Shown one piece after another: positions 55,883 to 62,825 of a stretch of DNA of 64,000 nt. The position numbers and the translations under genes were made by a program. The DNA is from Oligoflexales bacterium (GTDB taxonomy: Bacteria > Bdellovibrionota_B > Oligoflexia > Oligoflexales > Bog-1112), in the NCBI GenBank assembly GCA_045106415.1, contig JBGCEP010000028.1, forward strand, positions 1-64,000. Reading direction: 5' to 3'. Position 1 is the stretch's first letter, and each line of letters starts with the position of its first letter. The notes beneath the pieces are model-generated. The model was not told the origin of the DNA. It saw nothing but the letters and a program-made list of their open reading frames with translations, and made no database searches.

Positions 55883-57583
55883 ATGAAACGCACATTCTCA
55901 AAAAAAACACAGGAATTCTTGGAACAATATGCTTCTCACCCTCACTACAAAGCTCCTACTGGTACAACTCTTCACGCAAAATCATGGCAAACAGAGGCAC
56001 CTTTAAGGATGCTCTTGAATAACCTCGATCAAGAAGTCGCTGAAGACCCCAAAAACCTCATTGTATACGGAGGGACTGGTCAAGCAGCACGATCTCAAGA
56101 AGCTCTCCACGACATCATAGAAGCTTTACTAGAGCTTGATAACAACCATAGTATTCTTGTCCAATCAGGTAAATATGTTGGCAGAGTCAGAACTCACCCA
56201 GAGTCCCCTAGGGTTTTTATTGCAAATAGCAATTTAGTTCCTCACTGGGGCAACTGGGAGCATTTTCATAAGCTTTACGAGCAAGGGCTTATGATGTACG
56301 GACAGATGACAGCAGGTAGCTGGATCTACATTGGGACACAAGGAATTCTTCAAGGTACGTATGAGACTTTCGCAGCAGCTGCTCGCCAAGAGTTTGGGGG
56401 TACACTCGAAGGAAAATTAGTCGTCACAGGCGGCTTGGGAGGAATGGGAGGAGCTCAACCACTTGCTGTCACTATGAACAGCGGGGTTTGTCTGGCTGTT
56501 GACATTGATCCAGAACGCATTCAAAAACGACTTGATACCCGCTATATTGATCGTATGACTGATCACTATGAAACTGCAATTCAATGGTCACTAGAAGCTC
56601 AAAAGAATAAAAAGCCGCTTGCTATTGGCTTAGTTGGAAATATTACAGACGTTCTTTGCAATCTTATTAAAGATGGTATCACCCCTGATTTAGCAACTGA
56701 CCAAACTTCTGCCCACGACCCTATCTATGGCTACGTTCCACAAAACCTTAGTTTACAAGACGCTGTATCACTGCGAGAAACAGACCCTCAATCTTATAAG
56801 CAAAAATCTATTCACAGCATGGCTGAACACGTCAATGCTCTTCTCACTTTAAAAAAGAAGGGAAGTATTGTTTTTGATTACGGCAATAACCTCCGTGAGT
56901 TTGCAAAACAAGGTGGTGCAGAGCGTGCTTTCGACATTCCTGGTTTTGTTCCGGAGTATATTCGACCTCTTTTTTGTGAAGGACAAGGCCCTTTTCGATG
57001 GGTCGCTTTATCTGGAGACCCTTCAGATATTCACACAACTGATCAAGCTCTTTTAGATCTTTTTCCTGAAAACAAACACCTCAAAAACTGGTTAGCAAAA
57101 GCTCATAATCAAATTGAATTTCAAGGCCTTCCTGCCCGTATCTGCTGGTTAGGAATGGGTGATAGAGAAAAAGCTGGTGTACGATTTAACCAACTTGTTG
57201 CAGAAGGTAAACTCAAAGCACCGATCGTGATCGGTAGAGACCACCTCGACACAGGCTCTGTTGCATCTCCTTTTCGTGAAACAGAAGGTATGAAAGATGG
57301 AAGCGACGCTGTCTCTGACTGGCCTCTTTTAAACCTCATGAGCAACTGTGGTGGAGGGGCCACGTGGGTCTCATTTCACCATGGTGGAGGAGTCGGTATG
57401 GGTTATTCACAACACGCCGGAATGGTCACTGTAGCTGATGGATCTTTTCGTGCTGAACAGTGTCTCAAAAGAGTTTTGCATAACGATCCAGCAATGGGAA
57501 TCGTAAGACATGCAGACGCAGGCTATGATACCGCCCTTCAATACCAAAAAGACTTTCAACTCAAAGAGTGGGCTGATTCATGA
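55883..57583 (+). CDS. hutU: Urocanate hydratase
   Basis: [39 protein letters not shown]. Confidence 0.97.
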
Positions 57584-58794
57584 AAGTTATTGGACCTTTT
57601 TCTGAACTTCTCACGATGAATAACCTTCCCGCAAGTGGTCCCATAAGTGACGACAAACTCGAAGTGGCGAAAGACGTTGGAGTCCTAGTTCATAACGGCA
57701 GAATTGTTGAAATAGACTGTTTTTATAAACTTACAAAACAGCATTCACACATCGAAGAACTTCCACCACAAAGCACAGGGACTCCTGGTTTTATTGATAG
57801 CCATACTCACATTTGTTTTTCTGGCCGTCGAGAAAAGGACTATGCTCGGCGATTGCGTGGTGATACCTATCTCGACATAGCGAAAGCCGGTGGTGGTATT
57901 CAAAGTACAGTTCAAGCCACTCGAAAAGCAACAGAAGACGAACTCTTACAGAGCCTCTTAAAAAGGCTTTCCATCCAAATCAAACATGGCGTAACAACCT
58001 GTGAGGTTAAAAGCGGCTACGGTCTTTCCATTGAATCTGAAATGAAGATGCTGCAAACCATTGCACGAGCACAGCAAAGATCACCAGCGAAAATCGTTTC
58101 AACTTGCTTAGCCGCTCACACTTTACCCCCTGAATTTACAAACAAACAAGAATATCTTCAATTTTTAACAGCAGAATTATTGCCAAAAATTCAACATGAT
58201 AATTTAACAAAACGCATTGATATTTTTATTGAAGAAAGCGCTTTTTCTACTTCTGAGGCGATTCCATATCTTACAGCAGCCAAAGCAATGGGATTTTCTA
58301 TTGTCATACACGCGGACCAATTTAGCCGCGCAGGCTCACAGGTTGCAGCTCAGCTCAATGCACTAAGCGCGGATCATTTAGAGGCATCAGAAGATGAAGA
58401 TTTTAAGAACTTAAAAAAAGCGAATGTCATTCCCATTCTTGTCCCTGGCGCATGCTTTGGCCTTGGACTTCCACTCCCAGAAGCAAGAAAAATTCTTAAC
58501 CATGGTTTAGCCCTCGTCATCGCATCAGATTGGAACCCTGGGAGCGCTCCTATGGGAAACCTTCTTTTACAAGCTGCTGTTTTAGGCTGTCAGCAAAAAA
58601 TGACAATAGCAGAAACTTTTGCTGCCATTACATATCGAGCAGCGAAAGCTTTAGAAGTTGAGCAAGGAATCTTAACCGTTGGAAAAGTCGCAGATATTAA
58701 TGTATTCCCAACAGATAACCACCAAGATATTCTTTATCATCAGGGCATGATGCAGCCTTCTCATGTTTTTACCAACGGAGAAAATCACCTATGA
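57580..58794 (+). CDS. hutI: Imidazolonepropionase
   Basis: [42 protein letters not shown]. Confidence 0.95.
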
Positions 58795-59756
58795 GCCCTC
58801 TATGGCATCAATTTTATAAACCTTCTCAATTGAGGGGATGGTCACGACGGAAAGACGAACTTCAAAACGAGCGCTTAGGTGATTCAACTGCTTTCTTCGA
58901 CATGACAACCACCCATCATTCCTCTTTTTCCTCTCAGAAAATTGGGATCATAGGCTTCGAGTGTGACGAAGGTGTTTCTAGAAATCAAGGGCGCACTGGA
59001 GCTGCCCAAGGGCCACAAATTCTTCGCCCTTTTCTCTACAACCTCCCTATTCACAAACCACGAGATCTTATCGATTGCGGTAATATTACTTGCCAAAATA
59101 AAAACTTAGAAGCTGCTCAGGCGGCCCTTAGCCAAGCTGTTCAGCATATGCATCAAAACAACATTCTTCCTTGTGTCATCGGTGGAGGCCACGAGACAGC
59201 TTGGGGTCATTTTCAAGGAATTCAAGCTACGCATTCTGAAAAAAAAATTGGCATTATTAATTTTGACGCACATTTTGACATCCGAGCGTTACACCAGAGG
59301 CAAGGTCACTCTGGCACTCCTTTTTTACAAATTCAAGAACTTTTACAAAGCAAAAATAAAAATTTTTCTTATATGTGTTTAGGTATTCAGGAAAGTTCCA
59401 ACACACAATCGCTTTTTCAAAAAGCAACACAATTAAATATTCAATATACCCTTGCCCATGAATTTGAAAATCTTTGTTTTCATAATTTAAATCAATTTAT
59501 AAAATCTTGTGATGGAATCTATTTATCAATTTGTCTTGATGTTTTCAATGCAGCTAATGCCCCTGGGGTCAGCTCTCCGCAACCCTTTGGGGTGCAACCA
59601 TCATCATTTCTAAAAGTGCTACGACATATTCTAGAACAATCAATTTTATTTGGAGTTGATATCGTCGAATTATCACCTAAACACGACACCAACAATCTCA
59701 CAGCAAAACTTGCAAGTCAGATATTCTACAACATCTTTCATTTTATGAATAGTTAA
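58791..59756 (+). CDS. hutG: Formimidoylglutamase
   Basis: DEGV.RN.GR.GA..GP, GGGHETAW, NFDAHFD, SGTPF.Q, APGVS. Confidence 0.92.
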   Translation: MSPLWHQFYKPSQLRGWSRRKDELQNERLGDSTAFFDMTTTHHSSFSSQKIGIIGFECDEGVSRNQGRTGAAQGPQILRPFLYNLPIHKPRDLIDCGNITCQNKNLEAAQAALSQAVQHMHQNNILPCVIGGGHETAWGHFQGIQATHSEKKIGIINFDAHFDIRALHQRQGHSGTPFLQIQELLQSKNKNFSYMCLGIQESSNTQSLFQKATQLNIQYTLAHEFENLCFHNLNQFIKSCDGIYLSICLDVFNAANAPGVSSPQPFGVQPSSFLKVLRHILEQSILFGVDIVELSPKHDTNNLTAKLASQIFYNIFHFMNS

Positions 59757-60049: not shown

Positions 60050-61204
60050 ATGAAAATTCTTATTTTAGATGATCAGAAATATTACCTTGAGTCTCTTGTC
60101 GATGGTTTAAATGATCTTAACATTGAAATACAAACAACAACAGATCCAAAAAAAGCTTTGAAATTGGTTAAACAACACTCCCAAGATTATGCTGTTTTAT
60201 TAATAGATATCAATATGCCTATTATGAATGGTTTTGAAGTCATACAAAAAATAAATAATTTATCACTAGAATATTACCCTCCTGCTATTTTTTTAACCGC
60301 TGTTCATAATAATCAACAAAATATTCATTATGGCTACAGTAATGGAGCAGTAGACTACTTATTAAAACCCGTGGATTTATTTATCCTTCAATCAAAAATT
60401 TCTATCTTTACAAAACTTTATAAAAGTAGAAATGAAAACAATTTGTTAAATCAACAGTTATCACAAAAAATTTCTGAGCTTGAAAATGCAAATAAAAATC
60501 TACGATCATTTTCTTCTGTCGTAGCAAATGATTTAAAAACTCATGTCCGACAAATCTATAGTTTTAGCGAAATTATGCTGAATAAGAATTTAAAAAAAGA
60601 ATGTTCACTTGATTATTTATCCCGAATTCAACAATGCACATCTCAAATTAAACGAATTATTCATTCTATCAGCATCTTTAGTCAGTATGGATTAGAAAAT
60701 ATTGATAAAAAAACTTCTCACTCTGAAGAAGTCATACAAGAAGGAAAAAAATTTATTCAAAAAGAAATCAATAAATTTGATGTGGAAATAAATATTTCAA
60801 ATCATAGTTATCTTTATTGTGACAAAGAAAAAATGTCTATTGTTTTTCAGAACATCATACAAAATGCTATAAAATATAAAAATCCGAAAAATTCTCCGGT
60901 AATCAACATAAACATTCAACAAGAACCAAAAAAAACAACCATATCATTTACAGATAATGGATTAGGTATCCCAGAAAATAAAACAAAAGAAATATTTAAA
61001 TTTATGGAAAGATTTCATAATCCAGAAAAAATTCCAGGATCTGGCACGGGTTTAACAATATGTGAGCATATTGTTTCAATGCATGGTGGACATATTTGGG
61101 TAGAGTCAGAGCTTAATCATGGAAGTACTTTTTTCATTACCCTTCCAAAGCATCAAGAAAATATTTTGCTTGATAGCAAAAAGCCATCAAGCAAAATAGA
61201 CTAG
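60050..61204 (+). CDS. REC-HisKA-HATPase hybrid kinase with non-canonical H-box
   Basis: Intact REC (DD, D, T, KP); ANDLKTHV in place of SHDLKxP; NAIKY, DNGLGI, GSGTGL. Confidence 0.85.
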   Translation: MKILILDDQKYYLESLVDGLNDLNIEIQTTTDPKKALKLVKQHSQDYAVLLIDINMPIMNGFEVIQKINNLSLEYYPPAIFLTAVHNNQQNIHYGYSNGAVDYLLKPVDLFILQSKISIFTKLYKSRNENNLLNQQLSQKISELENANKNLRSFSSVVANDLKTHVRQIYSFSEIMLNKNLKKECSLDYLSRIQQCTSQIKRIIHSISIFSQYGLENIDKKTSHSEEVIQEGKKFIQKEINKFDVEINISNHSYLYCDKEKMSIVFQNIIQNAIKYKNPKNSPVININIQQEPKKTTISFTDNGLGIPENKTKEIFKFMERFHNPEKIPGSGTGLTICEHIVSMHGGHIWVESELNHGSTFFITLPKHQENILLDSKKPSSKID

Positions 61205-61344
61205 TTACAATGATCATCGCACTCTTCACAACAATCACAACTTGCATATTCGCAGGTGTCACACCCGCAATGAGTAACAGAAAATCCTGGGTTCGCAGGG
61301 ACCATTAACGCGACCAACGATAGTTTTTTCAAAAGGTTCTTCAT
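61201..61344 (-). CDS. Unannotated 47-aa signal-peptide + Cys-rich metallothionein-like peptide
   Basis: MKNLLKKLSLVALMVPANPGFSVTHCGCDTCEYASCDCCEECDDHCN; GAGGAG SD 6 nt upstream; 8 Cys and 2 His in the last 23 aa. Confidence 0.78.
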   Translation of the reverse strand: MKNLLKKLSLVALMVPANPGFSVTHCGCDTCEYASCDCCEECDDHCN

Positions 61345-61403
61345 CTCAAACTCCTCTAAATAAATTATTTATAAACCTTCTCACTCAAAGGCTTTTCATG
61401 AAC

Positions 61404-61433
61404 TATACTCAAATGATGACGAAAGTGTGACAT
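61404..61433 (-). promoter_or_regulatory. Putative ECF-sigma promoter, copy 1
   Basis: Minus strand ATGTCACA-N17-GTATA, identical to copy 2. Confidence 0.65.
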
Positions 61434-61439
61434 AGTGAC

Positions 61440-61934
61440 TCATAAAAATTTAAATCTCGCTTTAACAGCTTCATCTAAAAGAACTCCCCACGACTTAAAG
61501 CTTATATAAGCACTTAATGACCACATGAAAACATGCGGAACATCATTCATAACAGATCCGTTCATGTAAATTAAAAAAGCAAAAAAATTTAAAAATATAA
61601 AGAGAATAAAATGATAACTCCATATCACATGGCGGAATAAAAAACGGGAACAGATCCCTTTCAGTATCACGATAGGGGCCAATGTAAAAATCATTCCGCA
61701 CAAAATAGAGCAGCGGATAGATCCATACCTAGAATGAACCATATGCATCGTATCTTGTGCCATACGACTTAGCCCAAGACCAAATTGTCCACAAAAAATC
61801 ATAGATAAAAAGCCACCAAGAAAAATAGATAAACCTAGGCGCCATGTCACAGACCAAACACTAGGGTGCAGGTCTTGATGCACATACTTATAAATTTCTT
61901 CAACTTTAGTTTGATCAATTTTAGGAGCAACCAT
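61440..61934 (-). CDS. Four-TM membrane protein with Cys/His/Met cluster, candidate anti-sigma factor
   Basis: CGQFG, MHMVH, CSILCG; divergent from csoR-ECF sigma. Confidence 0.55.
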   Translation of the reverse strand: MVAPKIDQTKVEEIYKYVHQDLHPSVWSVTWRLGLSIFLGGFLSMIFCGQFGLGLSRMAQDTMHMVHSRYGSIRCSILCGMIFTLAPIVILKGICSRFLFRHVIWSYHFILFIFLNFFAFLIYMNGSVMNDVPHVFMWSLSAYISFKSWGVLLDEAVKARFKFL

Positions 61935-61959: not shown

Positions 61960-61989
61960 TATACACTCATCGCTCAAAATTTGTGACAT
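61960..61989 (-). promoter_or_regulatory. Putative ECF-sigma promoter, copy 2
   Basis: Minus strand ATGTCACA-N17-GTATA, 25 nt upstream of ATG 61934. Confidence 0.65.
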
Positions 61990-62001: not shown

Positions 62002-62031
62002 TTGACCCACCATACCCCCCAGGGGTATATT
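62002..62031 (+). promoter_or_regulatory. sigma70 promoter with CsoR/RcnR operator in the spacer
   Basis: TTGACC-N18-TATATT enclosing ATACCCCCCAGGGGTAT (62012-62028). Confidence 0.8.
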
Positions 62032-62037
62032 GTTATC

Positions 62038-62319
62038 ATGGATAAAAATGTATTTGCAAAAAAAACATCAGCAAGATTAAACCGAGCACTAGGTCAAGTC
62101 AAAGCAATTGGCAGCATGATTGAGAATGATGATTATTGTATTCATATCATCAGGCAAATTCGCGCTGCTAAATCAGCTTTAAATGCTCTTGAGCTTCTTT
62201 TACTAAATAGGCACATGCAAACTTGTGTTCGCACAGCATTTCAGCATGAAGATCCCGTCACCTCAGAAGAAAAAATTGATGAAATCATTTCTCTACTTAA
62301 AGAAGCACGAAAGTCATGA
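62038..62319 (+). CDS. csoR: CsoR-family metal-sensing repressor
   Basis: RL.R..GQV..I..M, DYC...I.QI.A, H...CV (Cys-His-Cys ligand set); start at ATG 62038. Confidence 0.88.
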   Translation: MDKNVFAKKTSARLNRALGQVKAIGSMIENDDYCIHIIRQIRAAKSALNALELLLLNRHMQTCVRTAFQHEDPVTSEEKIDEIISLLKEARKS

Positions 62320-62825
62320 ATAAAAAAAACTGCACGAACGAAGATCTTTTAAGGTTTTATTCTCAAGGAGATTTTGCGAGTTTTGATATTTTTTTCAAAA
62401 GAAACAGTCATATGATTTTTATGTTTATCTTCAGCAGAAGTGGAAATAAAGCTGACTCAGAAGATATTCTCCAAGAAACATTTTTTAAAATCCATAAGTA
62501 TATTCACACATTTAACCCAGAAAAAAATGCATTGAATTGGGTTTTCACAATCGCTATGAACACTCTTATCACACACCATAAATCTCGAAACAAACACCTA
62601 CCTCACTTTGATGAAATAAGTGCATCTTCTCCACACAGTCAAATTGAAGCTCGCAATGAATTACAAAAAATATTGGCAACATTATCTCATCACGAATCTT
62701 CTTTAATCATAGAAAAATTCCTTCTTGGAAAAGACTCTCATGAGATGAGTGAAACTTTTAAATCACCTGCTCCAAATATTCGAAAAAAATTATCTCGCCT
62801 TCTACAAAAAATCAGGTACTCATAA
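62316..62825 (+). CDS. ECF RNA polymerase sigma factor
   Basis: Region 2 DSEDILQETF...WVFTIAMN and region 4 HTH; ATGA-coupled to csoR. Confidence 0.9.
   Translation: MNKKNCTNEDLLRFYSQGDFASFDIFFKRNSHMIFMFIFSRSGNKADSEDILQETFFKIHKYIHTFNPEKNALNWVFTIAMNTLITHHKSRNKHLPHFDEISASSPHSQIEARNELQKILATLSHHESSLIIEKFLLGKDSHEMSETFKSPAPNIRKKLSRLLQKIRYS

Follow-up and report, generated by a model that had tools for sequence, protein, structure and literature searches.

The minus strand of the window, that is, of the whole 64,000-nucleotide stretch of Oligoflexales DNA analysed here, carries at positions 61201-61344 an open reading frame (ORF) of only 47 amino acids. It raises a simple question: is this frame a gene, and if so, what would a bacterium do with a small, apparently exported peptide packed with cysteine? 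The window belongs to contig C28 of a host genome of 2.95 Mb that is 93.8% complete. The translation is identical to the sequence quoted in the original prediction, which had proposed an exported metallothionein-like peptide. Based on this translation and on the homologues described below, we annotate the frame as a precursor gene encoding a signal peptide followed by a Cys-rich core, and it is very likely a gene. It has the strong Shine-Dalgarno sequence that had been claimed for it (AGAGGAG, 61351-61357, minus strand), and an intrinsic terminator with a 16-pair stem and a T tail (61162-61198, minus strand) begins 2 nt past its stop codon, in a region where terminator-like sites number 5 compared with 1.1 in shuffled sequence. 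The Shine-Dalgarno sequence, a promoter motif, the open frame and the terminator are all in register. As also predicted, the CTAG at 61201-61204 is common to the stop of the peptide gene and the stop of the convergent response-regulator/kinase ORF (60050-61204).

This combination of features is rare in the host genome. Only 441 of its 26,162 ATG-started ORF candidates of 25-130 aa have a Shine-Dalgarno sequence, and a leader and a Cys-rich tail occur in addition in just one of the 441, which is this peptide. Among 4,826 ORFs of 38-60 aa, 91 pass our signal-peptide rule and 7 have at least 6 Cys in the last 25 residues; this peptide is the only one with both properties. Since both filters were devised after the peptide had been seen, the homologues and the promoter weigh more than these counts.

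The first 22 residues (61279-61344, minus strand) form a rule-based, predicted Sec/SPI signal peptide, with an n-region of +3, a hydrophobic core of 8 residues (KD 2.84) that is short, and small residues at -3 and -1. The rule is our own, used in place of SignalP, and it also passes 294 of 1,791 long ORFs. The predicted mature peptide of 25 aa (61204-61278, minus strand) contains 8 Cys, 2 His, 7 Asp/Glu and no Lys or Arg. Cysteine thus makes up 8/25 residues, about one-third of the core, and the Cys spacings after Ser22 (1, 2, 4, 1, 0, 2, 3) give CxC, CxxC and CC. A basic and hydrophobic leader, followed by 8 Cys in these three patterns with 2 His and many acidic residues, is what had originally been described, and both the translation and the signal-peptide rule agree with it. 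A lipoprotein reading was dropped on direct reading of the sequence, because the first Cys is not preceded by a lipobox. AF2 predicted no fold for the peptide from a 10-row alignment (pLDDT 52.9, pTM 0.14), a low confidence that is not proof of disorder.

The searches turned up nine similar peptides, four of them in three other Oligoflexales genomes. A search for homologues had been called for with the original prediction, and the four lie in genomes G059, G012 (two) and G066; the G059 homologue surfaced when related genomes were searched with the neighbouring membrane protein, and the two of G012 and the one of G066 in six-frame searches. Protein searches added P0006, P0007, P0009, P0010 and P0011, the last a cluster mate of P0010. 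The ten-member set therefore comprises five peptides with DNA (the window's, one of G059, two of G012 and one of G066) and the five known as protein only. A 5-row profile matched in 4 of 116 genomes of the phylum, and a 10-row profile in 3 of 130 other genomes, the same three as before. In all ten members the N-terminus is basic and a hydrophobic stretch follows, with small residues at -3 and -1 just before the first Cys motif; nine pass the signal-peptide rule, and the tenth is short of its hydrophobicity cut-off by 0.03. The tails contain 6-10 Cys, 3-9 Asp/Glu and 0-4 His, with no Lys, Arg or Met. Five Cys columns are invariant in the family alignment, the Cys count is odd in four of the ten members, and the spacings are mostly 0-2. 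Of the Cys pattern, on whose conservation the original prediction had depended, the Cys core and five columns are kept, as is the leader, and the number of Cys varies. An hhalign comparison of the window peptide with the regular subfamily gave 80% probability over 20 columns. Homology among such short Cys-rich tails can be compositional. They align easily; the leader and the promoter count as the independent links between members.

Pfam, NCBIfam and PDB offered no usable match for the family. Up to E 10 no Pfam family was hit by any of the ten, the family profile had no match among PDB sequences, and the window peptide had none in NCBIfam, where other members gave two weak hits (E 0.14 and 2.3), one member each, that we regard as noise. 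The ESM Atlas gave nothing usable for the peptide (best 0.78), and a protein search that used the peptide alone as query gave no hit but the peptide. Three genome-derived homologues were looked up in a 15-billion-protein collection and all were absent there; a tblastn search of plasmids matched neither a homologue nor the putative anti-sigma factor described below, and three further genomes searched for the peptide were negative (0/3). Phyla beyond that of the host were covered by the protein searches only. A metagenome scan with the regular subfamily produced 172 pattern matches, none of which was confirmed, and a scan with a narrow Cys motif produced 39 loci, all lacking a leader, and one look-alike turned out to be another gene read in antisense. 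Separately, 13 of the 39 hits belong to a recurring protein of 85-95 aa with a Cys/His/acidic stretch at the N-terminus and, at the C-terminus, a hydrophobic part of two helices that looks holin-like by eye (loci L077, L078, L081-L083, L088, L089, L097, L102, L103, L105, L109 and L114).

Several further candidates were rejected. A genome search with the peptide at E up to 1 touched 31 of 95 genomes, nearly all noise, and only the best two G012 rows were kept. A 3-row profile at E up to 0.05 matched in 8 of 95 genomes; its rows for G008, G004 and G011 were dropped because they had no ORF with leader and Cys tail, and the G051 row, which sits inside a 4853-aa frame, was dropped unviewed. A weak second G059 row is not a family member, and a 1268-aa repeat protein among the protein-search hits was discarded.

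Upstream of the peptide gene on the same strand lies a gene for a 164-aa membrane protein of an unnamed family (61440-61934, minus strand), a putative anti-sigma factor and metal sensor with conserved C48, Q50, C75, C79 and W138; csoR, an ECF sigma factor gene and azurin are divergent from it. Proteins of this family are 160-180 aa long with a C-x-Q motif, a CxxxC and an invariant Trp, and they occur in 37 of 95 Oligoflexales genomes. In the loci inspected they are mostly found beside an ECF gene, and it is this pairing that suggests the anti-sigma role. The conserved Cys could lie at positions facing the periplasm under the topology we assume. The AF2 model is confident (pLDDT 94), and a Foldseek search with it found nothing at E 0.001. 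Pfam assigned no family; PF06532 (NrsF) was matched by none of 16 members, including the one at this locus, so the label NrsF was rejected. The family is likely a new metal-sensing anti-sigma factor associated with a promoter of the form TGTCACA-N16/17-GTA. Its members (window 61440-61934; loci L002-L023 and L128-L157) are seen beside Cus-type RND pumps, a multicopper oxidase, DUF3347 and CsoR.

The divergent csoR gene (62038-62319, plus strand; PF02583) encodes a repressor whose Cys34, His59 and Cys63 align with the Cu(I) sensors 2HH7 and 4M1P, giving the x-C-H-C ligand set that is described in excerpts of PMC11672702 as the Cu(I) fingerprint of CsoR sensors. The start of the ECF sigma factor gene (169 aa; 62316-62825, plus strand) overlaps the csoR stop. 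Before csoR, a C-tract/G-tract palindrome (62012-62028) overlaps a sigma-70-like promoter (62002-62031). By the operator consensus this palindrome is CsoR-operator-like, and our pattern for it has a single site in the host genome, ahead of csoR-sigma. Azurin (63069-63572, plus strand; TIGR02695 above cut-off) is a copper protein adjoining the module; no motif was seen in its upstream DNA, and its link to the module is uncertain. A DUF2452 gene (63523-63987) overlaps the end of the azurin ORF. On the other side of the peptide gene, the histidine-utilisation genes at 55883-59756 (urocanase, an imidazolonepropionase-like amidohydrolase and an arginase-family hydrolase) are ordinary.

The peptide gene is preceded by an ECF-type promoter motif, TGTCACA-N17-GTA (61406-61432, minus strand), which at 11.6 bits is weaker than most sites. 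A second copy, before the putative anti-sigma gene (61962-61988, minus strand), is the top-scoring site of the genome at 20.1 bits. In 22 loci fetched via the anti-sigma factor, spacer 17 accounts for 19 copies of the motif (one of these being the site of the G059 peptide itself), spacer 16 for 5 and ten other spacers for 2 in all; 13 held-out loci have 16 copies at spacer 17 and one elsewhere. The same motif is found ahead of three of the four homologous genes with DNA, hence of four of the five peptide genes including the window's, at 74-106 nt from the start. With a scoring matrix trained on 24 sites, the peptide loci left out, these copies score 11.6 (window), 17.4 (G059), 25.1 (G066) and 16.9 bits (G012, contig C451), the last with CTA in place of GTA. 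The chance of a motif in the host genome is about 3e-4 per 150 nt, and 10 bits or more is reached in 8 of 2,054 upstream windows of long ORFs. To be set against this, thirty other sites in the host genome score above 13 bits, higher than the 11.6 bits of the peptide gene, and the strict motif is at background genome-wide, with 6 sites at spacer 17 compared with 2-7. At other loci, copies of the motif lie ahead of operons for an outer-membrane factor, CusB (with HMBD) and CusA, and ahead of genes for a multicopper oxidase and for haem-binding proteins. Together with the CsoR context, the promoter motif points to a possible induction of the peptide gene by metal stress, and judged from the DNA the gene seems to be turned on by a circuit that senses copper.

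Two other small proteins share this type of promoter or operon. A different, secreted-looking peptide of 73 aa with two Cys and no Pfam match lies behind the same ECF motif in G049 (L023:1029-1250). An exported-looking protein of 130-150 aa recurs in the same ECF operons (L005:822-1220, L011:1952-2395, L012:1008-1418 and L121:5545-5967). Its mature part opens with a His-Gly motif, the one member scanned had no Pfam match, and it is a candidate periplasmic metal chaperone.

Searches of the host genome, at its 93.8% completeness, detected neither a P-type ATPase (PF00122) nor a multicopper oxidase (PF07732); the same searches were positive in 14 of 14 and 6 of 14 control genomes, respectively. 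Its one heavy-metal-type RND operon, on contig C6, is without the motif. With no such ATPase or oxidase detected, nothing but the peptide could be assigned to the circuit as an effector.

The other four peptide genes with DNA have different surroundings. In G059 the peptide gene is divergent from an ECF/anti-sigma pair and adjoins an RND pump and an HMA P-type ATPase. Along that region (L066:81-15160) it has the RND/P-type ATPase pair on one side and, on the other, a TniA/TniB transposon that comes with an integron-type integrase and a gene resembling dihydropteroate synthase; the region is either a mobile resistance-type region or a binning join. In G066 the peptide gene, with its motif, stands beside genes resembling arsC, arsH and acr3 and one that weakly matches merC, on a 9-kb contig with no sigma factor gene. 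On contig C451 of G012 it is the first gene before a different ECF sigma factor (20% identical) with an unrelated membrane partner, and no full anti-sigma factor of the window's family was found in G012. The second G012 peptide, on contig C307, has 40 aa and no ECF motif. It follows a Cys-rich ORF of 98 aa that passes a CutF-like filter (L062:622-1095) and ends in an RPPK motif like that of CutF/CruR. The RPPK codons can pair in a stem with the Shine-Dalgarno sequence of the peptide (z -2.0; 8 of 200 shuffles as good), and a strong hairpin follows the peptide's stop. The filter follows PMC9973294, and this arrangement is the one by which CutF turns on a copper oxidase. By their sequences, then, the five peptide loci show three different putative controls, and because the peptide-bearing genomes are kin, the five loci do not amount to five independent tests.

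We consider it probable (roughly 0.6) that the peptide is a copper-induced, unmodified periplasmic metal-thiolate buffer that is metallothionein-like but lies outside the SmtA family. The original prediction is partly supported: its exported Cys-rich metal chelator is the best-supported reading, since the homologues keep the leader and the Cys core, the ECF promoter is shared with metal-resistance targets, and the CsoR is of the Cu(I) type; a disulfide or redox role is still its rival. The choice between Zn/Cd, which had also been proposed, and Cu is made from context. Under the proposed mechanism, cytoplasmic Cu(I) would free CsoR from its operator, so that the csoR-ECF sigma operon is transcribed. 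The ECF sigma factor, gated by the Cys-bearing membrane anti-sigma factor, would then fire the TGTCACA-N17-GTA promoters of the anti-sigma gene and the peptide gene. The peptide would be exported by Sec and cleaved after Ser22, and its unstructured core of 25 residues would fold around several soft-metal ions through the thiolates of CxC, CxxC and CC. The metal taken up by this sponge would most likely be Cu(I) in the host, with Ag, Cd, Zn or Hg as possible ligand partners in the relatives. In this scheme we infer transcription, export, the cleavage site, the reading of the motif by the sigma factor, the reduced state of the thiols, and the identity and stoichiometry of the metal.

A wider proposal, to which we would give slightly less than even odds, is that the peptides form a natural family of Sec-exported, unmodified bacterial metallothioneins, that is, thiolate clusters of 20-30 residues in an oxidising compartment. 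The host peptide would then be the main output of a CsoR-to-ECF-sigma copper cascade with an undescribed family of Cys-bearing anti-sigma factors, and metal-responsive control of the family as a whole would be of three kinds, by two different ECF systems and by a translational switch of the CutF type.

The buffer reading has to be weighed first against an exported thiol/disulfide peptide, whose Cys would be oxidised in the periplasm and which would act against copper-catalysed damage as a sacrificial redox buffer or a small disulfide-knotted protein. Oxidation is the chief difficulty for the buffer reading: VKOR and DsbD are each present in all four peptide-bearing genomes (DsbB in none), and since VKOR is in all four the exported Cys may be oxidised. 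The even Cys count of the window core would suit disulfides, a structural disulfide is kept in bufferins according to excerpts of PMC11626156, and the same regulation would be expected under this explanation. What makes it unlikely is the family itself: a Cys number that ranges from 6 to 10 and is odd in four of ten members, with mostly CC, CxC and CxxC spacings, argues against a fixed disulfide scaffold and resembles metallothionein motifs, and there is neither a hydrophobic core nor a predicted fold.

Instead, the peptide might be a RiPP precursor of the bufferin kind whose modifying enzyme, an MNIO, is encoded elsewhere and acts in trans. Bufferins combine a Sec signal, Cys and ECF control (excerpts of PMC11626156 and PMC12452194), and a Sec-type leader and an ECF motif are both seen here. 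MNIO genes occur somewhere in all four peptide-bearing genomes, and hundreds of signal-bearing peptides with 1-18 Cys precede MNIO genes according to excerpts of PMC12452194. Against this, the order of precursor, MNIO and partner is described as strictly conserved, and MNIO is absent from the ORFs examined at all five peptide loci. The original statement that no modifying enzyme is adjacent likewise stands across the ORFs that were scanned from 50.4 to 76 kb of the contig. The host MNIO is preceded by its own DUF2282 precursor, in a bufferin-type cluster (L072:1227-1487, on contig C10 of host genome G000) that continues with the MNIO gene and a probable partner, and no copy of the ECF motif was seen upstream of that precursor gene. 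No member of the peptide family matches DUF2282 or any other family, and three of the family motifs found no match in two supplementary files of PMC12452194. The RiPP alternative, which had been raised with the original prediction, is weakened by the lack of MNIO at the five loci and by the host MNIO having its own precursor, and we regard it as quite improbable.

Even less probable is a regulatory role like that of CnrX, in which the peptide would serve in the periplasm as a sensor or feedback titrator, handing metal to the anti-sigma factor or competing with it. An ECF/anti-sigma pair lies beside three of the five peptide genes, and the anti-sigma factor keeps Cys that, by the assumed topology, could face the periplasm. 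For the other two peptide genes, the DNA retrieved around them shows no such pair nearby, and only 4 of 116 genomes in the phylum have the peptide, compared with 37 of 95 in the order for the anti-sigma family (4 of these 95 carry the peptide). Being so rare relative to the anti-sigma factor, the peptide is not an obligate part of the sigma system. Least probable of all is a silent ORF, or a decaying copy with a non-functional leader and a merely compositional resemblance, as its singleton status in protein collections, weak promoter score and short hydrophobic core might suggest, given that the gene signals are in register and that leader and Cys core are kept in nine other sequences.

If the metal-thiolate buffer reading is true, a Sec-exported poly-Cys peptide of 25 residues would mean that the periplasm allows plain metal-thiolate clusters to form and to persist. 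How the thiols escape oxidation by Dsb/VKOR would become directly testable, because the core can be purchased as a synthetic peptide. The peptide also points to a class of small genes overlooked by gene callers, and its neighbourhood suggests that Oligoflexales have a metal-linked ECF/anti-sigma regulon, so far undescribed, whose promoter is sharply defined.

The regulatory part of the locus is best compared with ECF41, whose promoter, TGTCACA-n16-CGTC, has the same -35 heptamer and a similar spacing, with GTA as the -10 element here. Since excerpts of PMC3426412 define ECF41 by a large C-terminal extension and no separate anti-sigma factor, and the sigma factor here stops after region 4, at 169 aa, and is paired with a separate membrane protein, the ECF41 label was rejected.

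Metallothioneins are described in excerpts of PMC12193353 as Cys-rich, of low molecular weight, and with the motifs Cys-x-Cys, Cys-x-y-Cys and Cys-Cys, all of which are found in the core of the window peptide. It resembles SmtA/BmtA (PF02069), MymT and PmtA in its small size, its share of about one-third Cys, its CxC, CxxC and CC motifs, its His as possible extra ligands and its putatively metal-responsive gene context. MymT, too, was once an unannotated small ORF, and is reported to bind up to six Cu(I) (excerpts of PMC7558416). The window peptide differs from these four in its Sec-type leader, its strongly acidic core of 25 aa and its ECF-sigma promoter; PF02069 is matched by none of the ten members at E up to 10 and is found in none of the four peptide-bearing genomes. 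The earlier generalisation that characterised bacterial metallothioneins are cytoplasmic was too strong, as Pseudomonas PmtA, which has no signal peptide, is reported from the cell surface in excerpts of PMC11237414. No report of a bacterial metallothionein bearing a signal peptide surfaced in the portions of the open-access literature consulted.

The periplasmic metal buffers described in those portions bind metal by His and Met (SilE, PcoE), as a pre-folded Tat-exported bundle (Csp1) or with enzyme-modified Cys (bufferins). The bufferins BufA1 and BufA2 (DUF2282, BUF_6/12Cys) are likewise Sec-exported Cys peptides under ECF sigma/anti-sigma control that buffer periplasmic copper, according to excerpts of PMC11626156. 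In contrast to them, the window peptide has a far higher Cys density, no MNIO/DUF2063 genes at its locus, no family match and no predicted fold, and its putative anti-sigma factor is not NrsF by Pfam. Csp1, an exported Cys-rich protein in which many Cu(I) are bound by thiolates (excerpts of PMC7558416), is a precedent for thiolate copper storage outside the cytoplasm, but it is a pre-folded, Tat-exported tetramer of four-helix bundles, whereas the peptide has a Sec-type leader and no predicted fold. By analogy, the closest functional model for the peptide is the sponge of the SilE/PcoE type. SilE is periplasmic, disordered when free, and folds on several Ag(I) or Cu ions, as described in excerpts of PMC5008109 and PMC12193353; it does so with His and Met motifs, whereas the peptide family is much shorter and has Cys, with 0-4 His and no Met in any of the ten cores.
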